From Candidatus Diapherotrites archaeon CG08_land_8_20_14_0_20_30_16 (lineage in GTDB: Archaea; Iainarchaeota; Iainarchaeia; Iainarchaeales; 0-14-0-20-30-16), in contig PEXK01000052.1 in assembly GCA_002779075.1 (NCBI GenBank), positions 1 to 19,212 on the forward strand: DNA of 19,212 bases, in the 5' to 3' direction. Of the stretch, positions 1 to 17,339 are shown in pieces. Numbering within the stretch: the stretch's first letter is position 1; every line of letters begins with the position of its first letter. The notes under the pieces are model-generated. The model had not been told where the DNA came from. It was given only the letters and a program-made list of their open reading frames with translations, and ran no database searches. Position numbers and translations under genes: made by a program.

Positions 1-3000
1 GTTGCAAACTGTGGATCTTTACTTGCCAGCCATTTAAAGAATTTTCCATAATCTCCTTTTGCTTTTGGAAGATTTGCTTGCAATTCTGCATGGCTTGATA
101 TTTCGAATCTCTGCATTGCTGATGCCATTTCTTCCTGCATACCAGTTATTGTATTTAATCTTGATGTATTAAATAAGCTCAAAATAAAAGCATCTTCAAC
201 TTCTTGTCTTACATCCCTTCCTGTTAATGCTCCTTTGTTTTCAAATAATTCTTTTGCTTTTTGCTCATCAGTTACCCCTGGCTGACTCTCTTTGTCATAA
301 TCATTAAATAAAGCACCAACAACAGGTATTTTTGCAAACCAATTATGCACGCCATCATACCAATGATCTCCAGAATCAATACCCAAAGCAACATTATTTC
401 TATGGTTTGCATACCAGCTTGTTAAACCTAAATCTACAGTTATAATACTACACTGTAAAGCAGCACCAGCCCATGCAAAGGGTCCCAAAAACTTTGCTTT
501 GCCAACAACCATTTCTGTTGCCATACATGCACCAAATCCTGCTACACTGGCTGCACCTATAGCAAGAGGCAGACCACTAGTAATATCACTTGCAAATGGT
601 TTCACATTATTTGAACTGCAAGTTGTATTTGGTGTTTTTCCAGAAATATAAATATTTTTGTTTTTCTCCTGTACCTCTTTCAATACTTCACAGCCATCTT
701 TTTGTATTTCTCCGCCTTCCCAATATACTTGTGCAAAGTATTGATTGTTTTTTAAACCAGAACCCAAAACACCAAAAATAAAATCTGCTGGTGGAACACC
801 ACAGGGTCTAAAGGATATTGATTCAACAAGGTCGTCACCAACAACAGGTCTGAAAACTAATTTCAGAGGATCTGCTTTATTGAAATTCTGTGCAACGCTG
901 GGATCACTAAAATCTATTTCTAAAATATATTCTTGTGGTCCACCCTTAAAAATACTGATATCTGAAACTTCATTATTCTGTTGATTAATAATTCTTGTTG
1001 TATATCCTTGTGGATTATCTGGTAATACAAATAGTTTTCCGCCACCGCCTACTGGTCCAATCAAACTAAACTTCACTGATTGCTTTCCAGATCCTGCAAG
1101 CACATCTTTTTTGCTTATTGATAATTTGTATGCTCCTTTCAAATCACTTGTTGATGAAACAAAATGTAATTTATCTTCTTCTTTTGTAATACAACCAATA
1201 AACCCTCCTTTAAGGGCTGCTTCAACAGAATTCAAAACATCTTGTCTTTTATCTGGTTTTGACACATCAATCTCTTTATTTACAGTGACAACAACCTGTG
1301 GATTTTCTTCTGCTTTCAATGAAATATCTAAAACCCTGTTTTCCAAACTTGCTCTTGTAAAAAATAATGTGTTTGATTTTCCTTGTGCTAATCTTTCTTG
1401 TGCAAAAAACTTTTTGCTGGCTTCTTTTGCTAATAAATCATAACCTACACCTACAAGACTTTTATCATAATCTGCATAACCTAGCAAAAATCCTGCAGTA
1501 TTATCAATTCCTGATTTACTATCTTTTGGCAAAAACAAAATTGCATTCTGAATTTCTGGTTTGCATTCAGGTGTATTTTCATAACCAGCTCTTGCAAGCA
1601 GACTAAATGAATCTTTTTGCATTGAACCATCACGTATCGCAAATGCGCCTTCCAATGTTATTGTGTACTTTCCGCATTTTGCAATAGACATATCAACAAA
1701 CAATTTATTGAACTGATATTCTGATTGTTCAACTAAATTAAAGCCCTGCAAAGGCAAAAGATTTACACTTTTTATTTGCGGAATACTTGCATTCAATACT
1801 TTTTCTAAATATTCTTCGCTTATTCTATCATGCATCAAATATAAAGTAAAGGGTGTGTATTCAATTCCTAATTTTTCAAAAGAACAGGATTTTGCTTCTG
1901 GTTTACAGCCTGTAGACTTTAAATCTTTTGTATATTTTGCACCTGCATTATTATACAATTCCAAATAACCCTTAATCTTTCCATGCAGATAATCTGATGC
2001 TGTCTGGCCATCACAATAAGCTGCCCCGCAATCAACAGAACTTGCAACTTTAGGAAATTTCACAGAAACTTTTGTATCGCTATCACAAACAGACATTTCT
2101 TTATCTAACGTTGGAAGGATATCTTTTCCTTTAGCAGTTCTTCCAAACTCAAATCTATAATTTACTGCTAATTCATAAATCTTATTTGTTTGAAGGCCTA
2201 TTGCTTTAAAAATAATTGGTTGTGTCCAACTCAATTCACTGCCTGCAAAAACAACTGATTTCAAAGTTAATGCTTGTTTAGGAAGGATTTGTTGGTTTCC
2301 TGCATTTTCTGCATTTTCTGCAGTTACTTCCAAACTGACTTTGTCCTTTATATTTTGCGATATGGGCAGATCCAATTTAATAGGTTCTGCACAATCATTC
2401 TGGATTGTCAGATTATCATTAGGTGGTAAGTAAACCTCTAACTTGCCAGAAATAAAAGATAATTCGCTTCCTGGAATAACTGCTTTAACACATTTGGGTG
2501 ATGAGATACTTAAAAATAATGGTATGCTTGCTTCTACAGGCTGGCTGTCAACAGAACTTACTCCTCTTACTAATATAGTATATGCAGTAATCACATTTGC
2601 TTTTTGTGTGTAAGGTGGTTGAATATATAACTGCGATAACCCTGTTTGATTTGGCATAATATATGGCAAAACTCTTGGATTTGGGCTGATGTTTACACGA
2701 ACATTTGTTTGGCTAGCCTGTGCAACACCTTGAGGCGTCCAATTATTGTATGGTGATAAACTGCTTTTATAATTTCCCCAAGGATCGTAAAGTGATTGTG
2801 TTTGCGGGCCATTCAAAAGAGGATTATAATACTCAGATGCAGGCACATCACTATAAGGGACGCCTGTTGTGAAAGGACTTGCATTATATGGCAAAAGCAT
2901 TACAGTTACATTTCTTAATGGTACACTTCCCAAATTGTTGATGAAAAGAGGCATAGTAACAATCTGATCTGCTGACAAAAATAATTGTGGATTTGGCACA

Positions 3001-6000
3001 GAAATATAAAGTTGCCCAAAGCTATGGATCAAATTTAAATGTAGGGGTAATTGTTTTATAAAATATCCTGTGTCTAAGTTCAGGAATAATTCTGCTTTGA
3101 TACTTTGTCCTTGTACAACCCCTCTTGATGTTAATGAAAATCTTAATGGTTTCTGTTCTCCTCTTTTCAAACTAATTGCACTTGCACTAAAATCAACACT
3201 TTGCGCAATTTCATTGAAGTCTCTAAAAACCAAAAATGGCGATAATTGCACAAAATCAAATTCACATTCATTTCTCAAATTCAATATGCCCTCAAATCTT
3301 TTGGCCTGCGTATCGTAAAGTGTTGCATTCAGTTCTGTAGGATCTGCAACCAAACAAGAGCTGTCTAATTCTGAATTTGCAATAAAAGATAAATGAATAA
3401 CCTGTCTTACAATTTCATTTCCATTTATTGTTCCACTTATTACTAAATCTTGATCGCCATATATTATTTGGTCGGTTTCAGTACTGACTGTTACTATTAA
3501 TTTAGTATCTGATTGTGGCAAAAGATTTGATTTCACAAATCTATAACTCACAACAAATGCTTTTGCATCGTCTCTTAAAACATCGCTACTTAATTTCAAA
3601 ACAGGATACTGCGAAATATTGCTTACAACAATTTCATAATCTCTTTGCTTTTTTCCTGGCGGAATCTTTATTTCATGTTCTGATTTTATACTCAAAACAC
3701 CAAATCTTGTAACAATAAAATTGCCTCTGACTGTGACATGTTGCTGTGCTCTAACTTCATAATTATAAACACCAGATGGCAATTCACTTATAACATATGT
3801 TCCATCCTTCCCTTTCTGTTGTGTATTATCTCCTTTCACTAAAACAGTTGCCAAACCTTTATCTTCTGTTACTGTGATAATAGCATTTGATATTTTTCCT
3901 TGCGTATCAGAAACATTGAATATTATTGGTTTCCCAAATTCAATATACCCATTACCATTCAAATTTACATTCAATGTTCTTTGGCCATCAATTCTAAAAT
4001 CAAAATTCTTTTGCAATCCAATAATTGGTGCAGTCATAGAAATTGTTGCAGTTCCTTGCTGCTTTGCATTAAAATACAACCTGAATTTTTTGTGTTCCCC
4101 TTTTTTCAAAACTAGACTGTAACTTAGAGATTCTAACTCTGTTTCTTTGGGATTGAAATTCATTAAATCCTCATCTAACCCATTAAGCACAATTGTTTTT
4201 AATAAATTATTTGCATTGAAATCAAGTCTTGTTGAAGCATCGCTAGGGCTGTAAAAATCAAAATCTATTGCATAAAATTCGTCAACAACTGCTGAAAATT
4301 CACTATATTTAGTAAAGCCATCAGTAAAAGAATAAGAATAACAAACGCTGGATACTGAAGAGCATTCAAACAAACTAGAAAATACTTCTATTTCTTCAGA
4401 ATATGTATTAGAATGCAACTTTTTTAATTTAGAATTCTGGACAGAAACATCTGATTTTGGATCTGTATGATAAGAATTTCCATCAAAAGAATCTGCCCTG
4501 TAATAAACATATAATTTGTTTAAATCCAAAGCATTAGAAACATTTACTTTCACTTTAAATTCTGTAAAGCCTTTAGGATTTTCATAAATAATGTTTGCCC
4601 ATTTATTTCTTATTCCAGATCTTCCAAACACCTGTAAATCTTTTACAAAACTCTCATCAGTATTTTCAGTATAATATAAACCATATTCTTTCTTTGTTCC
4701 TATTGAGTCTACTCCTAAAATTGCATACTGCATGGACTTTACTGGTTCATTTTCTTTGCCCAATCTAACATGTGCTTCACCTTTTGTTTGTCCTTTAGGC
4801 CAGATTAATGAAAACTTCAAATAATATGTGCCCCCTATTTTTACTCCATTTACTTTATTTGCGTAGGCATCATATATTCCTACAAAAGATATTTTAGGAT
4901 CTTTTGTAATATCTAATTCTGTTAAGAGGATTTCCATCTTTTCTGATACGTCCACTAATTTGGTGTATATGTTTCCTTTGCCATCAACAACAGTTACTTC
5001 AACTTCTTTTGCCCCATTAGACAAAAACTCTACTTTGCCTAATCCTGTATTTCCATCGAACAAAACAGAGGTTTCTGTTTTTATAGTCAACCCACCATTT
5101 TTCAGTGGCTGACCATTTGGTCCATAAATATATAATTTACTTGTTTTCTGTTTTGTTGTTAATGTTATTTCTATTTTATTATCTCCGCTCACTAAAAGTG
5201 CATCTTGTGTACCTTCTAAATCTTCTGTACTTATTGTCACCTGAATATTGTTGTTCGGTTCTAAAATAGTTGTAAATAATCCTGTAATTGCTGTTCTATT
5301 ATCAGGCAAATAAACAGGAAGATTCTTTTCTCCAATTATAGAAATATCCACGCTTGCATTTGCAATTGGCTTGTTATCTACATTGGCTGCAAAAATATTT
5401 ATTTTAGCCGCAGTTGAAAAATTTATCTTTTTAAGTATCAATATTATTGGAGGCAGGGTTTCAGAATCAACATACTGGGTAACAGGATAAAAATTTCCCA
5501 AAGCATAAGCAGATACATATGCTCCACGTTTTACATCAATGCCAGAAAACTCTACAACACCTAAAAAATCTGTTGTTTTCGTATCAATAATTAATCCATT
5601 TTCTGAATACAATGCTACTGTTGCTCCTGGAACATTCTGTTTTGTTTCGTCTCTCACAATAACACTAATTTTTGTTCCGCCTAAATCCAGATAAACATTA
5701 ATTCCCAAAGAATTTTGTCTGAGAGTTATATTTTTGTTTTTATCCTGCGAATCAAAAGTAATAAAATCTTCTTTTGAAACAACATATCTCAGTTCGATTC
5801 CTTTTTGAATGTTTATAGGCAATTTTCCTTGAGCATCAGTATAATCTTCAGCAATTAATTTTTTGTCACTAGAGTATAATTGCACTTTTACTTTTTCTAA
5901 AGGCAATCCATTAGCAGAAGTTACAGTGAAAGTTATTGTCCCTTTTTCTCCTGTTGCTATACTCTTAGGTTCTAAAATTAAATCAGTTATTTTTCCATTT

Positions 6001-6689
6001 GCAGGCACTTCAATAGTTTGAAAATCCAAATAGCCATCTTTATTAATTTTTATTGTTAATGGCCCCTGCAAAGAAATTCCTGACAATAAAACAATTCCTG
6101 AATCATCAGATTTTGTTGAAAATAAAAGCTCGCCATCAGAATAAACATTTACATCAGCACCAGGGATTATTGTTTGAAATTCTTTATCAACTAAACGCAG
6201 TTGCATACTTCCTATTTTTTCTTCTTTGGTAAAAGTAATTATTTTATACATTTTTTTACCAGAAACAATAATTTCCAGTGGCCCGACAAAAGTATAGCCT
6301 TCTAATTGTCCAATTACTTTCAAACTGTCTCCGTCTGAAACACCATTTAAAGTAATACTTTGCCCATCTGTAGTCAATTCATTATACAATTGGTCTTCGC
6401 CAAAACCAATTGTTAGAAGAACGTTATCTAATTTATTTTTTCCCATGTCTTCAAAATTTACCTGTAAAACAATACTTGATTTGAAAATCAAAAGTGAAAT
6501 CAGCACTATAACTATAATAATCAGAAGAATCAAAAATATAGAAAACCACATTGCAGGAATGCCGTGTCCTTCCAAAAAATTATTATATCTTTGAAGAGGT
6601 ATACCCTTTTCTGTTAAGAAATCGCTAAGGCCTTGGTATTTTTCCTGCAGTTTTGCATTTATTTTTGAAAAAAAGTTCCCTAAACCCAT
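1..6689 (-). CDS. Giant membrane-anchored surface protein, partial (>2,229 aa; the C-terminus lies beyond the left window edge), with tandem carboxypeptidase-regulatory/PEGA-like beta-sandwich repeats
   Basis: This ORF is absent from the ORF track because it has no stop inside the window. Manual reverse-complement translation starts at the ATG at 6689-6687, the first start after the in-frame TGA at 6725-6723. The frame stays open down to position 3; I spot-checked codon by codon at 1-60, 421-600, 1021-1080, 2401-2460, 3661-3720, 5401-5460 and 6121-6689. The track lists no complete minus-strand ORF in 1-7000, which agrees. The N-terminus is MGLGNFFSKINAKLQEKYQGLSDFLTEKGIPLQRYNNFLEGHGIPA, followed by the hydrophobic span MWFSIFLILLIIIVIVLISLLIF (a signal anchor). 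Repeated modules follow, such as MQLRLVDKEFQTIIPGADVNVYSDGELLFSTKSDDSGIVLL, ITFTVTSANGLPLEKVKVQLYSSDKKLIAEDYTDAQGKLPI and ISVIVRDETKQNVPGATVALYSENGLIIDTKTTDFLGVVEF. A Gly/Ala-rich hydrophobic stretch (GLPLAIGAASVAGFGACMATEMVVGKAKFLGPFAWAGAALQCSIITV) lies at about 430-600. Confidence 0.85.
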   Translation of the reverse strand, partial: MGLGNFFSKINAKLQEKYQGLSDFLTEKGIPLQRYNNFLEGHGIPAMWFSIFLILLIIIVIVLISLLIFKSSIVLQVNFEDMGKNKLDNVLLTIGFGEDQLYNELTTDGQSITLNGVSDGDSLKVIGQLEGYTFVGPLEIIVSGKKMYKIITFTKEEKIGSMQLRLVDKEFQTIIPGADVNVYSDGELLFSTKSDDSGIVLLSGISLQGPLTIKINKDGYLDFQTIEVPANGKITDLILEPKSIATGEKGTITFTVTSANGLPLEKVKVQLYSSDKKLIAEDYTDAQGKLPINIQKGIELRYVVSKEDFITFDSQDKNKNITLRQNSLGINVYLDLGGTKISVIVRDETKQNVPGATVALYSENGLIIDTKTTDFLGVVEFSGIDVKRGAYVSAYALGNFYPVTQYVDSETLPPIILILKKINFSTAAKINIFAANVDNKPIANASVDISIIGEKNLPVYLPDNRTAITGLFTTILEPNNNIQVTISTEDLEGTQDALLVSGDNKIEITLTTKQKTSKLYIYGPNGQPLKNGGLTIKTETSVLFDGNTGLGKVEFLSNGAKEVEVTVVDGKGNIYTKLVDVSEKMEILLTELDITKDPKISFVGIYDAYANKVNGVKIGGTYYLKFSLIWPKGQTKGEAHVRLGKENEPVKSMQYAILGVDSIGTKKEYGLYYTENTDESFVKDLQVFGRSGIRNKWANIIYENPKGFTEFKVKVNVSNALDLNKLYVYYRADSFDGNSYHTDPKSDVSVQNSKLKKLHSNTYSEEIEVFSSLFECSSVSSVCYSYSFTDGFTKYSEFSAVVDEFYAIDFDFYSPSDASTRLDFNANNLLKTIVLNGLDEDLMNFNPKETELESLSYSLVLKKGEHKKFRLYFNAKQQGTATISMTAPIIGLQKNFDFRIDGQRTLNVNLNGNGYIEFGKPIIFNVSDTQGKISNAIITVTEDKGLATVLVKGDNTQQKGKDGTYVISELPSGVYNYEVRAQQHVTVRGNFIVTRFGVLSIKSEHEIKIPPGKKQRDYEIVVSNISQYPVLKLSSDVLRDDAKAFVVSYRFVKSNLLPQSDTKLIVTVSTETDQIIYGDQDLVISGTINGNEIVRQVIHLSFIANSELDSSCLVADPTELNATLYDTQAKRFEGILNLRNECEFDFVQLSPFLVFRDFNEIAQSVDFSASAISLKRGEQKPLRFSLTSRGVVQGQSIKAELFLNLDTGYFIKQLPLHLNLIHSFGQLYISVPNPQLFLSADQIVTMPLFINNLGSVPLRNVTVMLLPYNASPFTTGVPYSDVPASEYYNPLLNGPQTQSLYDPWGNYKSSLSPYNNWTPQGVAQASQTNVRVNISPNPRVLPYIMPNQTGLSQLYIQPPYTQKANVITAYTILVRGVSSVDSQPVEASIPLFLSISSPKCVKAVIPGSELSFISGKLEVYLPPNDNLTIQNDCAEPIKLDLPISQNIKDKVSLEVTAENAENAGNQQILPKQALTLKSVVFAGSELSWTQPIIFKAIGLQTNKIYELAVNYRFEFGRTAKGKDILPTLDKEMSVCDSDTKVSVKFPKVASSVDCGAAYCDGQTASDYLHGKIKGYLELYNNAGAKYTKDLKSTGCKPEAKSCSFEKLGIEYTPFTLYLMHDRISEEYLEKVLNASIPQIKSVNLLPLQGFNLVEQSEYQFNKLFVDMSIAKCGKYTITLEGAFAIRDGSMQKDSFSLLARAGYENTPECKPEIQNAILFLPKDSKSGIDNTAGFLLGYADYDKSLVGVGYDLLAKEASKKFFAQERLAQGKSNTLFFTRASLENRVLDISLKAEENPQVVVTVNKEIDVSKPDKRQDVLNSVEAALKGGFIGCITKEEDKLHFVSSTSDLKGAYKLSISKKDVLAGSGKQSVKFSLIGPVGGGGKLFVLPDNPQGYTTRIINQQNNEVSDISIFKGGPQEYILEIDFSDPSVAQNFNKADPLKLVFRPVVGDDLVESISFRPCGVPPADFIFGVLGSGLKNNQYFAQVYWEGGEIQKDGCEVLKEVQEKNKNIYISGKTPNTTCSSNNVKPFASDITSGLPLAIGAASVAGFGACMATEMVVGKAKFLGPFAWAGAALQCSIITVDLGLTSWYANHRNNVALGIDSGDHWYDGVHNWFAKIPVVGALFNDYDKESQPGVTDEQKAKELFENKGALTGRDVRQEVEDAFILSLFNTSRLNTITGMQEEMASAMQRFEISSHAELQANLPKAKGDYGKFFKWLASKDPQFA

Positions 6690-6793
6690 AAAAATACCTT
6701 TTTGTGGGAATCTGTCATAATTTCAGAATTTAATGAAGAAATTAGGACTGTCCCATTCCAATCCCATCTATATTATAATATTACTTATTAGTA

Positions 6794-7071: not shown

Positions 7072-8061
7072 TTATGGTTTGGTTGTCAGATTTATTGTAT
7101 TTAATTGCTTTTCTGGATTATAAACTCTCCAAAATATTGGACATCCACCAAAACAAAAATTAATTCTAGAACAAAGAGTGCATTCTTTTATTGGCCTGTG
7201 AGATATCTTTGCTCTAACCGAATTAAGTTCAGACCACATTTTTTCAAAATTGTTGTAGGAAATATTACTATTAATTTTTGCAATTGGAAAATCGACCCAA
7301 TGAGTGCAAGGCAAAATATTATTATTACTATCTATAACCAAACCACTTCCTGAAAAAATATGACAATTAAAATTATAGTGTTTTTTTAGATCATTTGGAA
7401 CTAAACAAGATGGAACAGGTGTAACAACCGAAAATGTCGCACCACTGTATTTTTTTATTAACCGTCTTAATAGGGGATTAAATTTCTTTGTGAATTCATC
7501 TGGCGAAAAAGTAATATTATTTTTTCTAAAGTTCGTAACTATATTATATCCAAAACGTTTAATTCCGAGATTGTATAGTTCATCTATTAATTTAGATAAA
7601 CTTGAAAAATTTGATTTGCTAATTGCTGTATTTGTGGATAATATCTTTATATTATAATTAAATACATTTTTTATTGCTTTTCTAATAAAATTATATGCTT
7701 GTTGGTTATCTACAATTATATTGTGTAAATCTTTTGGACCTTCAATCGAAATGGTTATGCCCTTTAATTTGGGCAGTATTGTTTTACACAAAGACTTTCT
7801 TGAAAAACCAAGACCATTTGTTACTACAAAAACATTGAAACCCCCATTATACAACATATTTACAATCTCTTCAAAATTAGGGTGTAATGTGGGCTCGCCG
7901 CCAATTAATATTATCTTTTTTGGTTTTATTTTATTAAATAAGTGAATAAAATTTCTTATGGTATCTAAGGTCATAATTCCTCCTCTTTTTTTATAATAAC
8001 AAAATTCACAATTATTATTGCATTGAGAAATTATTGTTAGCCACACAGTAGATATTGTCAT
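7072..8061 (-). CDS. Radical SAM enzyme with a C-terminal SPASM-type auxiliary Fe-S domain (putative peptide maturase)
   Basis: The CxxxCxxC motif is CNNNCEFC; its codons were verified at 8022-7999. A GGEP SAM-binding motif is present (ILIGGEPTLHP). The C-terminal region reads CHIFSGSGLVIDSNNNILPC ... ECTLCSRINFCFGGCP, which gives an exact Cx2Cx5Cx3C SPASM signature at about 7141-7365. The start is most likely the ATG at 8061, forming a TAATG overlap with the upstream stop. The track's TTG at 8067 is the alternative. Confidence 0.9.
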   Translation of the reverse strand: MTISTVWLTIISQCNNNCEFCYYKKRGGIMTLDTIRNFIHLFNKIKPKKIILIGGEPTLHPNFEEIVNMLYNGGFNVFVVTNGLGFSRKSLCKTILPKLKGITISIEGPKDLHNIIVDNQQAYNFIRKAIKNVFNYNIKILSTNTAISKSNFSSLSKLIDELYNLGIKRFGYNIVTNFRKNNITFSPDEFTKKFNPLLRRLIKKYSGATFSVVTPVPSCLVPNDLKKHYNFNCHIFSGSGLVIDSNNNILPCTHWVDFPIAKINSNISYNNFEKMWSELNSVRAKISHRPIKECTLCSRINFCFGGCPIFWRVYNPEKQLNTINLTTKP

Positions 8062-8750
8062 TAGCAATCCTCTTCAAAAAAATAAGTCCCATATATTCCC
8101 ATAATAAGAAAATCTTCTTCTTCAGACAATATCATTATTTTACTATAAAATTCGTTCTCGTGTTTTATGGGCGCTTTAAAAAGTGGCTTTGTTTTCAAAT
8201 AGAATTCTTTTATTTTATCAGAATAACATTTCTGCTTTGGCAAATACCCATATTTAATTTTAATAAGCATTTGCCTAAATTTAAAATCCACAAAAAAATA
8301 ATTGTATGGAATTAATGAGTAATCTATTGATTTTAATAAAACAAAATATTCCTGAGATCTACATTCACTAATATATGTTTCAAAAATATATTTATATGCA
8401 AGATAATCTGCCAAACAGGTCTTTAGATCTTTTGGGTATTTATTTTTATCAAAAAAGGCATCATAGATTTTTTCGCGTAACGAAAATATTGTTTTGTCTG
8501 CTTGTTTCATATACCTCAAATCTATTGCTTTTATTTTGTTTTTTAGTTGTGTATTATATTTGGCATTAACTTTTAATTTGTACTTTTTTCCTGATTCTTT
8601 TTCAATCTCAATTACTTCATGCAAAAGTATTTCTTTTCCTAAAAAAGATTCAAACATTTTTAAATAAGCCATTTTATTGATTTCATAAAAAAATTGTGAA
8701 AATGGCTTCCAATCAAATACCATAAAACTATTTATTTGAATTTCTCGCAT
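8061..8750 (-). CDS. Hypothetical protein (229 aa ORFan) in the rSAM operon
   Basis: This is a complete ORF. Its ATG (8750-8748) directly abuts the TAA of the upstream gene (TAAATG), and its own TAA overlaps the ATG of the rSAM gene by 1 nt. The protein is rich in Tyr, Phe and Lys and looks largely helical. I recognise no P-loop, ATP-grasp, HD or other catalytic motif. Confidence 0.7.
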   Translation of the reverse strand: MREIQINSFMVFDWKPFSQFFYEINKMAYLKMFESFLGKEILLHEVIEIEKESGKKYKLKVNAKYNTQLKNKIKAIDLRYMKQADKTIFSLREKIYDAFFDKNKYPKDLKTCLADYLAYKYIFETYISECRSQEYFVLLKSIDYSLIPYNYFFVDFKFRQMLIKIKYGYLPKQKCYSDKIKEFYLKTKPLFKAPIKHENEFYSKIMILSEEEDFLIMGIYGTYFFEEDC

Positions 8751-9086
8751 TTAAGAATCCTCTTTAACAACAAAATGTTTTTCATTTAAATCTATTGATA
8801 TGCTTGTGTTGGGTTTTAACATATCAAAAGAGTTAGTTCCTAAAATAACAGGTATTTTAAGTTCTCTGCTTATAATTAATGCATGACTCAAAATACTCCC
8901 ATTTTTAATAATTAGTAATTTATAATCCGAAACAAAAGGAATTCTATTCATTTGTAAAGTGGATAAAAACAATATTTTATTTTGTTTATTATCTTCAGTA
9001 TAATCTGGCTTTTCAAATTTTATAACTTGTCCAGAAATGTTGTTGTTTCCGTAAGACATGATATATTTAGCATTAAATTTAACCAA
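8751..9086 (-). CDS. Stand-alone PEP-utilising-enzyme mobile (swivelling phosphohistidine) domain protein, 111 aa
   Basis: The sequence ISGQVIKF...KILFLSTLQMNRIPFVSDYKLLIIKNGSILSHALIISRELKIPVILGTNSFDMLKPNTSISIDLNEKHFVV follows the PF00391-type pattern: G.xSHaaIvaRElgIPav.G, then ...v.vDg..g.v. The putative phospho-acceptor His is residue 68; its CAT codon was verified at 8885-8883. The TTG start at 9086 is preceded by GGTGAT (9096-9091) with a 4-nt spacer. The ATG at 9059 is an alternative start. Confidence 0.8.
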   Translation of the reverse strand: MVKFNAKYIMSYGNNNISGQVIKFEKPDYTEDNKQNKILFLSTLQMNRIPFVSDYKLLIIKNGSILSHALIISRELKIPVILGTNSFDMLKPNTSISIDLNEKHFVVKEDS

Positions 9087-9137: not shown

Positions 9138-9362
9138 TTATTTATCACCAATACAATCACTACTACAATCAGGATTGTCACCACAATCACAAACACAATC
9201 ACAATCTCCTGGCGATCCATCTCCTTCGTAACAATCTGCAGCCATAAAAACATCCGATTGCCCCTTTTTGGACTTTATTATTATTAAATCACCAGTCACA
9301 TTAGAATTTCCAAATTGGGTATTATATAAAAGATATTCTTCTCTTACAGTACAATCTAACAT
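9138..9362 (-). CDS. Small Cys/Asp-rich peptide (74 aa; 89 aa if started at 9407), candidate RiPP precursor
   Basis: The sequence is MLDCTVREEYLLYNTQFGNSNVTGDLIIIKSKKGQSDVFMAADCYEGDGSPGDCDCVCDCGDNPDCSSDCIGDK. The ATG at 9362 is preceded by GGAGGG (9373-9368) with a 5-nt spacer, the same style of SD-like motif seen before purA and proS. It is the first gene of a same-strand, tightly packed cluster ending in an rSAM/SPASM enzyme. The last 34 residues contain 7 Cys and 9 Asp; codons were checked one by one across 9141-9245. Confidence 0.7.
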   Translation of the reverse strand: MLDCTVREEYLLYNTQFGNSNVTGDLIIIKSKKGQSDVFMAADCYEGDGSPGDCDCVCDCGDNPDCSSDCIGDK

Positions 9363-9511
9363 ATTATCCCTCCAAAAATATAAAAACACTAGTCTTTGGC
9401 CAAACATTAAAACAAGATACTAAAGATTTACAAAAGAAATAATTCAAAATTAGCTTGGTCGTTTTCCTTCTAAGTAAGGTTAAAACCATATAAATATATT
9501 ACCTAGAAGAA

Positions 9512-9681: not shown

Positions 9682-11139
9682 TTATAAAAGGGGGGAGATT
9701 AATCTTGCCAAAGACTGCTTTAATTTTATCCATTTGCTCTGCTGAATAAGATCGCTTTTTGTAATTTCCTTACAATCTTTTAAGTCATTATAAAATATCT
9801 GTGTAAGTTTTTCAGTAGTATTTGTATCAAATATGAATGCGTTCACTTCGAAATCCAACTTTAGTCCACGAATATTCATATTTGTTGACCCTACTGATGA
9901 AATATTATCTGAAATTAACATTTTTGTATGCAAAACGCCATTCTTTCCTTTTGCATAACTATATACTTTTACTCCGACATCCAGCAACTCTGGAAGATAA
10001 GTCAAATTCACCAGCTTATACAAAGAAAGATCTGGATTTTCAGGTATTATCAATCTTGTGTCCACTCCTTTTAATGCCGTAGATTTTAATGCTAACAGCA
10101 CGCTATCATCAGGAATAAAATAAGGCGTCTCAATATACAATTTTTTTTCTGATGTTGTAATTATTGAGAAAAAAATTAGTTTTAAGTTTTCCCATTTTGT
10201 ATCTGGCCCAGAAGGCGCAATGTGTAAATTCACCTTTCCTTTAGTTTCTAACTTCGGATATAATTTATAATCATAAATATCCTGTTTTGTTGCAAAGAAC
10301 CAATCTCTCACAAAAATAGTTTGAAGCGAATAAACTGCGGGTCCATTTATTTTTAATTGAATATCTCTCCAAAAACCATATTTCCCACCATTAAAATATT
10401 CCTGCCCAATATTCATACCGCCTATAAATGCTGTTTGGCCATCAAATATTGCTATTTTTCTGTGATTTCTATGATTTAATTTGCTTTTTAAAATAGTTAA
10501 TCTCACAGGTAGAAAAACTCCTAATTCTATATTATTCTGTTTCAAAATGTGTTTATAATGTCTTATAAATTTTTGTGAGCCAAAGCCATCTAAAAGTATT
10601 CTAACTTTGATTCCGCATTTTGCTTTTTTTATCAAGCAATCTATTAATTTTTTTGTTATTTCATCATTTCTAAAAAGGTAAAATTCTAAATGAATGTGTT
10701 CTTTTGCTTTTTCTATTTCATCAAACAGACTAGGAAAAAATTCTGATCCGTTATTCAAAATTTCAACAGAATTATTCTTAGAAAAGGGATAATTTGTTGA
10801 ATGCAAAGCTAAATACATAGTATGTCTTTTTTCTTGCAGTTCTACAGGCAATTGTGCATTATGCAAAAATTCTTTTTGTGATTCAACAATTTTGGTTAAA
10901 ACATTTGCATATTTAGGTCTGCGCAATCTCCAAGAATAAAACTTTTGCTTTAGATTTTCTCCTGCCCAGAAATATGCTATTATTCCAAATATAGGAATAA
11001 AAACAAGCACCAAAATCCATGCAATAGTTTTATGCGGATCTCTATTTTCCAAAACAAGTACAACAATCAGATTTAACACATAAACAACAAATAAGGCTAT
11101 TAAAAGCCAAAAAAACCAAAGCATAATAGAAACACGCAA
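9682..11139 (-). CDS. cls: Cardiolipin synthase, PLD superfamily (ClsA-like)
   Basis: Two HxKx4D (HKD) motifs are present: HRKIAIFDGQTAFIGGMNIG and HTKMLISDNISSVGSTNMNIRG. The N-terminus has two hydrophobic helices and the ClsA-like segment ENRDPHKTIAWILVLVFIPIFGIIAYFWAG. The track start at 11139 is a TTG; the ATG at 11124 (MLWFFWLL...) is the more likely start. Confidence 0.9.
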   Translation of the reverse strand: MRVSIMLWFFWLLIALFVVYVLNLIVVLVLENRDPHKTIAWILVLVFIPIFGIIAYFWAGENLKQKFYSWRLRRPKYANVLTKIVESQKEFLHNAQLPVELQEKRHTMYLALHSTNYPFSKNNSVEILNNGSEFFPSLFDEIEKAKEHIHLEFYLFRNDEITKKLIDCLIKKAKCGIKVRILLDGFGSQKFIRHYKHILKQNNIELGVFLPVRLTILKSKLNHRNHRKIAIFDGQTAFIGGMNIGQEYFNGGKYGFWRDIQLKINGPAVYSLQTIFVRDWFFATKQDIYDYKLYPKLETKGKVNLHIAPSGPDTKWENLKLIFFSIITTSEKKLYIETPYFIPDDSVLLALKSTALKGVDTRLIIPENPDLSLYKLVNLTYLPELLDVGVKVYSYAKGKNGVLHTKMLISDNISSVGSTNMNIRGLKLDFEVNAFIFDTNTTEKLTQIFYNDLKDCKEITKSDLIQQSKWIKLKQSLARLISPLL

Positions 11140-11223: not shown

Positions 11224-11242
11224 ATGTGAACTGTTTTGCTTT

Positions 11243-11315
11243 AGCCCCATGGTGTAGTGGTCTATCATACGAGGCTTTGGACCTCGTGACCTGAGTTCGA
11301 ATCTCAGTGGGGCTA
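11243..11315 (+). tRNA. tRNA-Gln (anticodon UUG)
   Basis: I folded the cloverleaf by hand. The acceptor stem is AGCCCCA/TGGGGCT with an A1:U72 pair, typical of archaeal tRNA-Gln. The anticodon stem is CGAGG/CCTCG and the loop is CTTTGGA, giving anticodon TTG. The T arm is CTGAG-TTCGAAT-CTCAG and the discriminator is A. No CCA is encoded. The 101-aa track ORF at 11042..11347 (-) overlapping it is spurious. Confidence 0.9.
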
Positions 11316-11338
11316 TTAGTGGGATTGTAAATCCTACA

Positions 11339-11511: not shown

Positions 11512-13224
11512 ATGTTAGAGCAAATAAAGAAAGATTTAGAGAAACTAGACCCAAGCCTCATTATAACAAGTCTTGAAATATACGAAAGGAATATAAGACT
11601 GGGTTTTCCTGAGGAATTATCTTTGTTGGGCCTCTTTTTGCCATACCTTTCAGAAGAAAGAAAAGCTAAATTGGAAGATATTGCAAAAAAGTACATCCCT
11701 TCGGGGGAAGAAAAAATAGAAAATCTTATTTGCATAAAAGATATTGAATCATTAAATGATCCTATTTTAAAAGAAAATTACAAAAAAATGCCTAAAAAGA
11801 TATATGAAGTAGCATTTACAAAAATAACACATTTGGATTTAGCTTTAGCACTTTTGTCTGAAAAGGCAACAGAAATAAACAATAAAACATATTTTCCAAA
11901 CCAAAATACCTTTGTTGAGTTTTTAGAAAATGTTTATTGTCAATTGTGCCAGATTTTTGATATTTCCTATTATACTAATTTTTTGGATAATTTTGTTATA
12001 ATTAATAAATATCATGAAGAATACAAAAAAGTTCTAGAAATAACAAAACAAAATCTGACTAGAAGCAAAGATGAAATTTATTATATAATATCAGAATTAA
12101 AAAAGTTTCAAAAATATCCTAATGAAATTTTCAAAGGCAGATTAAAAACACCTGCAAGCGTTTTTAAGAAAGTTTATGTTAGAAAAGAACCTGTAGAAAA
12201 CATTGTTGATTTTGTAGCAATAAGAATTGTTACCAATACAATAAGCGATTGTTACTCTTGGTTAGGATACATTTATTCTCTGTGGCCTCCAAGGCTTTCA
12301 AAATTTATGGATTATATTGAACATCCAAAACCCACTGGTTACAAATCTTTACATATTGTTGTAGACACAAAATTTGGGCCTGTTGAATTTCAAATACGAA
12401 CTCATAATATGCATAGATTTGCAGAATTTGGTTTAGCAGCACATTGGAAATACAAAATAAAAAACGAAAATAAAATGTTAGAAAAAATAAAATCTAGACT
12501 CGCTACACAAAACCCCTATTTTGATCAGGGCCACATTTTTGTATACACCCCAAAAAAGGACATAATAATATTAGATAAGGGTTCTTGTATTGTTGATTTT
12601 GCGTATGCAATTCACACAGATCTTGGCGACCATTTATTTTCTGCAGAAGTCAACAATAAAATTGCACCTTTGAACTATAAGTTAAAAGATAAAGACATAA
12701 TAATGGTTCATGCAGATTCAAAAAAGAAACCAAATAAAAATTGGCTTGAGTTTGTTGTCTCAAATAAAACAAAGGAAAAAATATCTCAAAGTTTAAAAAT
12801 TATAAAAATTAATAAAAAAATAAAATTGCTAAATCCAACTCTTTTTTTTAAAGAGAAGGTGCAAGTTGCACAATGTTGCAATCCTTTTTGTGATGATGAT
12901 GTAGGAATATACAAAAGCACAAAAAGAAAATTAATCCTGCATAAAGCGTCTTGTCTAGAAAAAAACCATTTGAAATATTCTTATGCTTCGGATGCTTTAA
13001 AAACCCTTTTTTTAATAAATAAAAGAATTAAAATACAACTATCTTCAGATTCCAATCTGCTTATTGAACAATTAAAAACAAAATTTGTAATGGAAGATCC
13101 AGAAATAAACAAAAAGAGGAATACAATAACATTCAACACAAAACTAGCACACAAAGAGGATTTTACAAAATTCAAAGAAGAATTATTAGAAGAAGAGTTT
13201 GTTGAAAGCGTTGAATTGGTTTGA
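11512..13224 (+). CDS. Long RelA/SpoT homologue (RSH), putative (p)ppGpp synthetase: divergent N-terminus, then SYNTH, TGS, Cys zinc-finger (ZFD) and ACT-like domains
   Basis: The synthetase motifs are GRLKTPASVFKK, DFVAIRIV, DYIEHPKPTGYKSLH, EFQIRT and HRFAEFGLAAHWKYK (about 12133-12456). The TGS domain is IFVYTPKKDIIILDKGSCIVDFAYAIHTDLGDHLFSAEVNNKIAPLNYKLKDKDIIMV (about 12532-12711). The post-TGS segment is PNKNWLEFVVSNKTKEKISQSL. The ZFD is VAQCCNPFCDDDVGIYKSTKRKLILHKASC. I could not find an HD hydrolase His-Asp motif in residues 1-200. GGGTG lies 9 nt upstream of the ATG. Confidence 0.85.
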   Translation: MLEQIKKDLEKLDPSLIITSLEIYERNIRLGFPEELSLLGLFLPYLSEERKAKLEDIAKKYIPSGEEKIENLICIKDIESLNDPILKENYKKMPKKIYEVAFTKITHLDLALALLSEKATEINNKTYFPNQNTFVEFLENVYCQLCQIFDISYYTNFLDNFVIINKYHEEYKKVLEITKQNLTRSKDEIYYIISELKKFQKYPNEIFKGRLKTPASVFKKVYVRKEPVENIVDFVAIRIVTNTISDCYSWLGYIYSLWPPRLSKFMDYIEHPKPTGYKSLHIVVDTKFGPVEFQIRTHNMHRFAEFGLAAHWKYKIKNENKMLEKIKSRLATQNPYFDQGHIFVYTPKKDIIILDKGSCIVDFAYAIHTDLGDHLFSAEVNNKIAPLNYKLKDKDIIMVHADSKKKPNKNWLEFVVSNKTKEKISQSLKIIKINKKIKLLNPTLFFKEKVQVAQCCNPFCDDDVGIYKSTKRKLILHKASCLEKNHLKYSYASDALKTLFLINKRIKIQLSSDSNLLIEQLKTKFVMEDPEINKKRNTITFNTKLAHKEDFTKFKEELLEEEFVESVELV

Positions 13225-17143: not shown

Positions 17144-17265
17144 ATCTATCCTCTAAACCTACCTTATAGACAGTATAATTTTATGTGTTGGTTGAAAACT
17201 GCAATATAATATAGAATATATACAATATAAACAATTAACTTTAAAAATAAGAAAAAGATAAAAAG

Positions 17266-17339
17266 TGGGCGAGGCCGGATTCGGACCGGCGACATACTGC
17301 GTATAAGACAGTTGCTCTACCAGGCTGAGCTACACACCC
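17266..17339 (-). tRNA. tRNA-Ile (anticodon UAU)
   Basis: The hand-folded minus-strand sequence is GGGTGTG-TA-GCTC-AGCCTGGTA-GAGC-A-ACTGT-CTTATAC-GCAGT-ATGTC-GCCGG-TCCGAAT-CCGGC-CTCGCCC-A. The anticodon loop CT-TAT-AC gives UAU. There are two departures from the canonical form: a U6/U67 mismatch in the acceptor stem, and C rather than U at T-loop position 55. No CCA is encoded. Confidence 0.75.

Follow-up and report, generated by a model that had tools for sequence, protein, structure and literature searches.

An Asp-Cys repeat peptide encoded with a radical-SAM/SPASM enzyme and a phosphohistidine swivel protein in a Diapherotrites archaeon

What is made from a small archaeal peptide that ends in a run of Asp-Cys units, and by which enzymes? 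The question is raised by a stretch of 19,212 nucleotides (the window, contig PEXK01000052.1) from Candidatus Diapherotrites archaeon CG08_land_8_20_14_0_20_30_16, which encodes on its minus strand a 74-residue, precursor-like peptide (PIU21938.1; 9141-9362, stop codon at 9138-9140; translation and NCBI annotation) in one operon with a radical S-adenosylmethionine (rSAM) enzyme of the SPASM type. Peptides that are made on ribosomes and modified after translation (RiPPs) matured by such enzymes rank among the chief sources of new peptide chemistry and of tools for macrocyclisation, and the maturase PapB is already used in this way. Our analysis suggests that the open reading frame (ORF) encodes a genuine ribosomal precursor whose (DC)n core is cross-linked by the rSAM enzyme and which also undergoes a phosphohistidine-dependent step; we regard this combined reading as evenly balanced between right and wrong. 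That the ORF encodes a genuine precursor or substrate, whatever the chemistry, is very probable.

The Asp-Cys peptide and its operon

The core-like tail of the peptide, AADCYEGDGSPGDCDCVCDCGDNPDCSSDCIGDK (9141-9242, minus strand, by translation), contains seven Cys, nine Asp, one Glu and one Tyr in 34 residues, and the terminal Lys is its sole basic residue. The minus-strand translation of 9407-9138 ends in ...MLDCTVREEYLLYNTQFGNSNVTGDLIIIKSKKGQSDVFMAADCYEGDGSPGDCDCVCDCGDNPDCSSDCIGDK before the stop, a C-terminus also given as ...FMAADCYEGDGSPGDCDCVCDCGDNPDCSSDCIGDK. The hexamer GATTGT occurs six times on the minus strand within 9153-9236 (at 9153, 9165, 9183, 9195, 9201 and 9231), together with one GTTTGT (Val-Cys). 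A first reading of this DNA from its letters (the sequence-only reading) had reported the same hexamers, residue counts and terminal Lys, with which the translation agrees, and had listed the spacings from each Cys to a following Asp correctly. It had placed the tail at 9141-9245, of which 9141-9242 is the 34-residue tail and 9243-9245 is the preceding Met codon.

The composition of the tail is far beyond chance. With the remaining 5,784 residues that the window encodes as background (Cys 1.2%, Asp 5.2%), the probability of at least seven Cys in 34 residues is P = 1.5e-7 and that of at least nine Asp is P = 4.7e-5, and all other proteins encoded in the window together contain only eight DC dipeptides. 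GATTGT has 25 matches in the whole window where 12.65 +/- 3.48 are expected, and none of 200 shuffles reached 25 or more. The GATTGT repeat reflects DC repeats written in an AT-rich codon bias, not repeat amplification at the DNA level; the homologues described below also use GAC and TGC at like positions.

The start of the gene is at the ATG at 9362. A Shine-Dalgarno-like GGAGGG (9368-9373, minus strand), read from the sequence, lies 5 nt upstream of it, and this site, the NCBI gene call and the leader lengths of the homologues favour the 74-residue product over the 89-residue one that would begin at the ATG at 9407. The N-terminal 40 residues (9243-9362, minus strand) are leader-like and show the motif Y-x-L-Y ... 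N-x-N-[VIL]-[TS]-G-x-x-I in the family peptide alignment. An identical 74-residue protein is encoded on 11 contigs of one population of Candidatus Diapherotrites archaeon CG08 (Crystal Geyser), with identical DNA. A word-based protein homology search with the peptide returned the peptide itself as the sole match, and there is no Pfam or NCBIfam match, metallothionein and ferredoxin families included.

Four genes follow one another on the minus strand: the peptide gene; a gene for a stand-alone PEP-utilizers mobile (swivel) domain protein of 102 residues (8754-9059, PF00391); a gene for an orphan protein of 229 residues that we call helper A (8064-8750); and the gene for the radical-SAM/SPASM enzyme, of 329 residues (7075-8061, recognised by PF04055 and its Cys motifs). 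A gap of 78 nt separates the peptide gene from the swivel gene. The stop of the swivel gene directly abuts the ATG of helper A (TAAATG) and the start of the rSAM gene overlaps the stop of helper A (TAATG), junctions that indicate translational coupling of the last three genes. The same four genes are called on independent assemblies. The core-like tail of the sequence-only reading is thus the C-terminus encoded by a genuine small gene that shares its operon with a radical-SAM/SPASM enzyme.

The rSAM enzyme matches the Pfam Radical_SAM domain at 2e-17. Its CX3CX2C motif (CNNNCEFC, residues 14-21) and a GGEPT motif (residues 54-58) are invariant in seven homologues, and further invariant Cys residues are C219, C233, C252, C294, C297, C303 and C307, the last four forming a CX2CX5CX3C motif at 294-307. 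The enzyme therefore shows the features by which SPASM peptide maturases are recognised as a superfamily, namely the rSAM motifs, the SPASM set of Cys residues for two auxiliary clusters and an adjacent, conserved small peptide gene. A RiPP recognition element (RRE) at the N-terminus is lacking, as the radical-SAM motif begins at residue 14 and leaves no room for one. The best NCBIfam match is PapB (NF047865; E = 2.2e-21 over the full length, 76.5 bits against a cutoff of 340), followed by anSME (TIGR03942; 9e-16, 58 bits against 349), the CXXX-repeat maturase TIGR04115 (42 bits against 350) and QhpD (TIGR03906; 9.4e-11, 41 bits against 453); matches to the sulfatase maturase, SkfB and further SPASM families lie at 1e-11 to 1e-16. 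In an AlphaFold2 (AF2) model (pLDDT 81, pTM 0.84), the closest full-length structures are those of SuiB and CteB, which are peptide maturases, and of anSME, which oxidises Cys (TM score 0.67-0.72), and anSME, SuiB, SkfB, EpeE and PqqE are comparably close neighbours. From sequence and model together, the enzyme appears to be a peptide-modifying SPASM enzyme of no described family. A viperin-type defence enzyme was also considered and rejected: there are only generic PADLOC viperin-core matches, confined to the N-terminal half of the rSAM enzyme, and both the SPASM domain at the C-terminus and the neighbouring peptide gene speak against it.

Homologous loci and phosphotransfer partners

The closest homologues of the rSAM enzyme that lie on contigs (41-55% identity) comprise eight distinct loci with a preserved flank, and a (DC)n-rich small ORF adjoins the rSAM gene in all eight. 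The sequence-only reading had stated that its prediction would fail if no comparable Cys/Asp-rich ORF existed at homologous loci; such an ORF is present at all eight. The small-ORF cores end in ...TDCTGEDRDCECDCDCIECCEY (L011), ...ECDCNCDCDCTFDCDCTRDCDCNPDCDCDCPY (L012), ...DSDCEDSNPGDCYEDCGDAGDCDCGEGHCGDHAD (L015), ...ACDCKCDCLPLPADCSPKCDCYDCDD (L016/17), ...TCDCPCDCLPAPIDCQPNCDCYDCEE (L018), ...DCDCDCDFDCDCGRDCDCEGNDCDCECRY (L023), ...NCDCDCTFDCDCAIDCDCVGNDCDCECRY (L024/L104) and ...DCDCDNCECDCNCHCDCNGNCDCASYCYDCR (L105/106). Between L023 and L024, 24 of 63 codons differ, ten of them synonymously, with all ten core Cys residues kept and both GAT/GAC and TGT/TGC in use; synonymous change with retained Cys points to selection at the protein level. 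The window and these eight loci form a small, coherent family with a near-pure Asp-Cys core and a maturase that lacks the usual leader-recognition domain.

The architecture throughout is a leader followed by a hypervariable core in which only Cys is conserved. The conserved core unit of the family is Asp before Cys (DC, CDC, DCDC), not CX3D. The emphasis of the sequence-only reading on Asp following Cys, in the manner of Cx3D, therefore does not carry over to the family, and several homologues lack any acidic residue after their last Cys. In L105 and L016, Cys residues outnumber Asp and Glu combined. Every core contains Tyr, which is the C-terminal residue in four homologues (CEY, CPY, CRY) and lies within a DCY[DE] motif in the window and three others.

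In the family alignment a loose leader motif, Y-x-[IL]-Y ... N-x-N-[ILV]-x-G-x-x-I, recurs in the N-terminal halves. Of 505 stop-free window segments scored with a leader-only hidden Markov model (HMM) derived from the homologues, the window ORF comes out on top, with a weak E value of 0.15. As a separate observation on the leader, its residues 16-27, QFGNSNVTGDLI (9282-9317, minus strand), resemble residues 2-13 of the swivel protein, SYGNNNISGQVI (9021-9056, minus strand), with an ungapped score of 37, where shuffles average 18.3 (p = 0.0005, for the window only); BLASTP of the peptide against the swivel protein gives no alignment. Mimicry of the swivel N-terminus by the leader was rejected as a general rule, since the best matches at the other loci lie elsewhere or are non-significant, and the likeness in the window may stem from a partial duplication in this lineage or from chance.

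Gene callers misread the DC repeat in a wrong frame ('IAIVIAILIAIV...', 'VIVTVIVHLIVIV...') or fuse it to the N-terminus of the rSAM enzyme, as at L023 211-299 (P0011) and L014 1-150, where the wrong frame reads 'IAIVIA...'. This misframing explains why the real peptides are missing from protein databases and hence why the peptide search found only itself, and it means that such peptides are systematically hidden from these databases.

The clade of the window contains two archaeal loci (the window and L105, whose contig carries ribosomal protein S8e), one metagenome-assembled genome (MAG) labelled Patescibacteria (L024) and several unassigned metagenome contigs. In a scan of a genome collection L024 was the only close locus, the remaining rSAM enzymes being at most 30% identical, and a scan of viral contigs gave no close relative. 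Directly downstream of the (DC)n cassette of L018 (3159-4631) lie a second small acidic ORF (MRLCGDNFMNVSDHPNNGEWADEWIGNDGYVDTGDINPPGPSSDDED) and then a second, longer rSAM gene (429 residues), which may be a tandem RiPP system.

The swivel protein of the window matches PF00391 at 8.2e-9 (35.4 bits against a cutoff of 23.1) and retains the catalytic His (NGSILSHALI), which is conserved in all ten aligned swivel sequences of the family. Wherever there is enough flank, the rSAM gene is accompanied by an intact-His swivel gene together with helper A and/or a second helper, helper B, or by a fused dikinase (L012). Helper A (210-231 residues) is the partner in the window, L015, L018 and L019/L105, and helper B (267-295 residues) in L011, L016, L024/L104 and L105; L022 and L023 encode helper B on contigs that end before any swivel gene. 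Both swivel/helper pairs occur in L105/106. The gene order in L105 (2770-6141) is peptide, swivel A, helper A, rSAM, helper B, swivel B, and in L106/L019 (L106 292-6036) two GNAT acetyltransferases, a NUDIX hydrolase and a second helper B stand between helper B and swivel B. A GNAT gene also adjoins the cassette in L011.

Helper A carries an invariant SEEED motif near its C-terminus (consensus LSEEEDYLI, LSEEEDFLI in the window protein). It has no match in Pfam, NCBIfam or PADLOC, and a word-based search returned nothing. An exhaustive HMMER search of 1.84 billion representative proteins found only three true relatives. The genes of two, P0024 and P0025, stand immediately next to a swivel gene, that of P0024 within a complete cassette; the third, P0023 (231 residues), corresponds in length and degree of similarity to the 231-residue helper encoded in the L015 cassette. 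The AF2 model of helper A is mostly helical and of moderate confidence (pLDDT 74.6, pTM 0.78), and at this confidence no fold in the PDB matches it at E <= 0.001.

RPH-type (rifampin phosphotransferase-type) dikinases transfer phosphate from ATP to the His of a swivel domain and then to a second substrate. The partner in L012 is a single protein of 888 residues in which a PPDK_N ATP-grasp domain (PF01326, 1.3e-95) and, at the C-terminus, a swivel domain enclose a unique central region; it matches models of RPH, PigC and RedH at 1e-86 to 1e-92, and also PRK06241 ('PEP synthase' subfamily). An extra ORF combining ATP-grasp and swivel domains is present in L024. The split RPH-type dikinases HpeHI, CreHI and PpsAB phosphorylate phenols (PMC12167813). 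By analogy, the most fitting interpretation of the swivel protein and helper of the window is that they belong to a split phosphotransfer module in the rSAM pathway. Neither curated families nor the literature searched showed the pairing of a conserved phosphohistidine carrier and two orphan helper families with such a maturase.

Beyond this clade, several rSAM enzymes of 24-29% identity adjoin CDC-rich ORFs and have no swivel genes nearby. They come from Roizmanbacteria, Parcubacteria, Eggerthellaceae, Paludibacteraceae, Clostridia, Lachnospiraceae and a Mollicutes MAG; at a broader level the groups include Bacteroidales and Patescibacteria. The CDC/DC-rich ORFs lie at L099 5613-5984 (core ...DCNCVCDCNCDCYDCEDCQDCRDC...), L093 2315-2536, L114 2757-2990, L112 1872-2039, L064 5592-5990, L039 7053-7220, L032 6881-7144 and 3055-3255, L029 6903-7118 and L031 5644-5976. 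These distant enzymes are likewise of the RRE-less SPASM type, and neither they nor their peptides reach a curated NCBIfam cutoff. Their occurrence suggests a wider, so far uncharacterised superfamily in which it is the RRE-less SPASM enzyme that acts on the Cys/Asp cores, since CDC-rich ORFs accompany it where no swivel is encoded, and it suggests that the phosphohistidine module is an add-on of the window's clade. Other distant relatives lie beside (ACHS)n repeat peptides (L129 2-376, L139 3-197, L161 1-120, L175 2-340 and L179 1-174), which, in contrast to the DC family, look like the known target family of CXXX-repeat maturases (TIGR04115 type).

Proposed function and competing explanations

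We propose that the three partners encoded directly downstream of the peptide act on it as their substrate. The RRE-less rSAM enzyme would abstract a side-chain hydrogen and join the sulfur of Cys to a neighbouring acidic or amide residue, forming a thioether to the beta-carbon of Asp (or to Glu or Asn) as PapB and QhpD do. With such links repeated along the core, the DCDC modules would become a compact peptide with multiple staples. Alongside this, swivel protein and helper A would form a split module resembling the small-molecule dikinases, and the peptide would be phosphorylated or activated by it; our best guess at the site is the hydroxyl of the core Tyr or a carboxylate. A second, phosphotransfer-dependent step of this kind, which the sequence-only reading had not foreseen, is implied by the association of a phosphohistidine swivel protein with a helper, or with a fused dikinase of the RPH/PigC type.

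Thioethers between Cys and the side chain of Asp (or Glu or Asn) are the most likely chemistry in view of the PapB and QhpD precedents and of the near-obligatory Asp next to Cys. QhpD is a SPASM rSAM enzyme that makes intrapeptide Cys-to-Asp/Glu thioethers. PapB joins Cys sulfur to the beta-carbon of Asp (or the gamma-carbon of Glu) and tolerates spacings from CX0D to CX6D (PMC9413430), which makes Cys-Asp thioethers chemically plausible here. The PapB-type thioether predicted in the sequence-only reading is accordingly plausible in that PapB is the top match and has this tolerance, and is weakened in that the rSAM enzyme falls below the PapB cutoff and has no RRE. On balance we regard thioether formation as a real possibility that stops short of being probable.

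Several points weigh against the proposed function. The chemistry is not fixed by the sequence of the enzyme, since the PapB score is far below its cutoff and other SPASM families score nearly as well. A strict model of one Asp for each Cys does not fit the whole family, L105 and L016 being the misfits, and the homology of the leaders is statistically weak. A Pfam scan of the window proteins found no protease, transporter or ATP-grasp (PPDK_N) gene in the operon, nor an ATP-grasp elsewhere in the window. With no RRE, protease or transporter in the operon, leader recognition, cleavage and export are unexplained; with no ATP-grasp protein to charge the swivel His, so is the source of the phosphate. 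Also, comparison by hhalign of helper A with helper B, and of each with the fused dikinase of L012, its central domain included, revealed no relationship.

The same cassette and substrate could serve a different radical chemistry, such as conversion of Cys to formylglycine (anSME-like), S-C-alpha (sactionine) bonds, epimerisation, or cross-linking or decarboxylation of Tyr (as by MftC and PqqE). Asp would then be a spacer, a recognition residue or a phosphotransfer target, for example in a transfer from His~P that yields an Asp acyl-phosphate. The comparable structural distances to anSME, SuiB, SkfB, EpeE and PqqE fit this explanation, as do the matches to the sulfatase maturase, SkfB and other SPASM families, the lack of an RRE in anSME and EpeE as well, the C-terminal Tyr of four homologues with DCY[DE] elsewhere, and the excess of Cys over acidic residues in L105 and L016. 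It is opposed by the rank of PapB as the top curated match over the full length, and by the placement of Asp next to Cys as the most conserved core feature, which is expected if both residues react, and by the absence of the anSME recognition motif (C-x-P/A-x-R). We consider a different radical chemistry to be on the unlikely side.

A peptide that carries no covalent cross-links is less probable still. It could be an acidic thiolate mini-protein that binds metal or Fe-S clusters, like a metallothionein or a metallophore. It might supply clusters or electrons to the rSAM enzyme or serve it as a scaffold, and the true substrate of that enzyme would then lie elsewhere. The CxC and CC motifs of variable number and spacing are metallothionein-like, the operon has no protease or exporter, and the organisms come, by their sample sources, from metal-rich anoxic groundwater or lake water. 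Against metal binding stand the strict position of the peptide beside a SPASM rSAM enzyme at every distinct locus with a preserved flank, its division into a leader and a hypervariable core with only Cys conserved, the lack of a metallothionein or ferredoxin match in Pfam and NCBIfam, and the absence of the ferredoxin-type CxxCxxCxxxCP spacing. Finally, the ORF might be no gene at all but a chance product of a low-complexity, AT-rich intergenic repeat, being short, without a database family and found by word-based search only as itself. This explanation is effectively refuted by the comparative data, and has a negligible probability: the composition is far beyond chance, a GGAGGG ribosome-binding site precedes the start, and at eight distinct loci a like ORF stands at the corresponding place, with synonymous changes and retained Cys.

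To return to the cross-linked precursor with a phosphohistidine-dependent step, its furthest consequence would be a previously unrecognised class of RiPP, known to date from ultra-small, AT-rich lineages only, in which an RRE-less SPASM rSAM enzyme and a phosphohistidine relay together produce a multiply thioether-stapled (Asp-Cys)n core. Phosphoryl transfer would go to the conserved Tyr, or would activate an Asp carboxylate (His~P to Asp, as in two-component signalling). We hold this to be possible but rather doubtful. The curated families and the literature searched contain no described precedent for radical and phosphohistidine chemistry combined on a ribosomal peptide; the literature searched on RiPPs with rSAM enzymes and PEP-utilizers or dikinases, or on such systems in DPANN archaea and candidate phyla radiation (CPR) bacteria, gives no account of this cassette; and the curated libraries do not hold a SPASM maturase, a free swivel protein and orphan helpers together. 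By sequence, peptide and rSAM enzyme lie outside every curated family. If phosphotransfer proves integral to cross-linking, the system could become a new RiPP class. DPANN archaea and Patescibacteria are genome-reduced episymbionts with few accessory pathways, and the retention of a four-gene cassette in them suggests that it serves in interaction with the host, in the handling of metals or in redox chemistry.

Genomic surroundings and comparison with known systems

An AT-rich gap of about 380 nt with runs of T separates the operon from a downstream giant ORF (3-6722, minus strand), which runs off the end of the window (more than 2,240 residues here, 3,180 on the full contig), has faint matches to Big_1, bMG3 and CarboxypepD_reg together with a Lipase_GDSL_2 match, and is probably a DPANN surface protein. 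A large NPCBM_assoc protein is likewise encoded downstream of the cassette in L105. Directly upstream of the peptide gene lies a bacterial-type cardiolipin synthase/phospholipase D (PLD) gene (9685-11124, minus strand; PLDc_N and two PLDc_2 domains), a neighbour that is present in all longer contigs of this archaeal population. Further upstream is a protein of 570 residues with a RelA/SpoT synthetase domain and a TGS domain (11512-13224, plus strand; PF04607 2.8e-33, PF02824 1.6e-15); RelA/SpoT homologue (RSH)-type (p)ppGpp enzymes are uncommon in archaea. The window also encodes a tRNA-Gln(TTG) (11242-11316, plus strand) and a tRNA-Ile with anticodon TAT (UAU) (17265-17339, minus strand). The latter, with genes for a thermosome, an archaeal-type prolyl-tRNA synthetase (ProRS) and PurA, fits a DPANN archaeon that decodes AUA without an agmatidine-modified tRNA.

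Among known systems, the dikinases of the RPH family (rifampin phosphotransferase, PigC/RedH and the split HpeHI, CreHI and PpsAB) share the His swivel with the window. They use an ATP-grasp domain, whereas the swivel protein of the window is free-standing, with 102 residues, in an operon that has none. Helper A shows no detectable similarity to the RIF-binding domain of RPH, either in sequence (hhalign against L012) or in fold (PDB, with a moderate-confidence model). The literature searched yielded no RPH-family enzyme that works with an rSAM enzyme or on a ribosomal peptide.

The radical-SAM side of the cassette has more numerous counterparts. anSME resembles the window enzyme in its size, its lack of an RRE, its full SPASM domain and its action on a peptide Cys, with a TM score of 0.67-0.69; the sulfatase motif is absent here, and the substrate would be a dedicated small peptide. 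QhpD acts on QhpC, which is an enzyme subunit with a tryptophylquinone cofactor and not a (DC)n peptide, and the gene neighbourhood of QhpC and QhpD differs. The SCIFF/CteB and CXXX-repeat (TIGR04115) systems likewise consist of Cys-rich small peptides beside SPASM maturases, and CteB has a TM score of 0.68 to the rSAM model; their core motifs, however, differ from that of the window (six Cys in 45 residues in SCIFF, C-x-x-x repeats in CXXX), CteB has an RRE, and both systems lack a swivel partner.

The PapA/PapB system of freyrasin (a ranthipeptide, NF047865) is likewise a SPASM rSAM enzyme beside a small Cys/Asp-rich peptide. Substrates of the PapB type pair Cys with Asp or Glu, a pairing that is found in the window core, although parity fails in L105 and L016. 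The N-terminal RRE of PapB occupies residues 1-86 (PMC12715619), whereas the window enzyme has no RRE and scores far under the cutoff of the PapB family, at 76.5 bits against 340. The motif of PapA is CX3D and the unit of the window family is DC/CDC, and PapAB lacks the phosphohistidine and helper partners, both of which the window cassette has. Thus, judged by its sequences, the cassette works like a ranthipeptide/SPASM RiPP system, yet with an rSAM enzyme that stands outside the PapB, SCIFF, CXXX-repeat, QhpD and anSME families.

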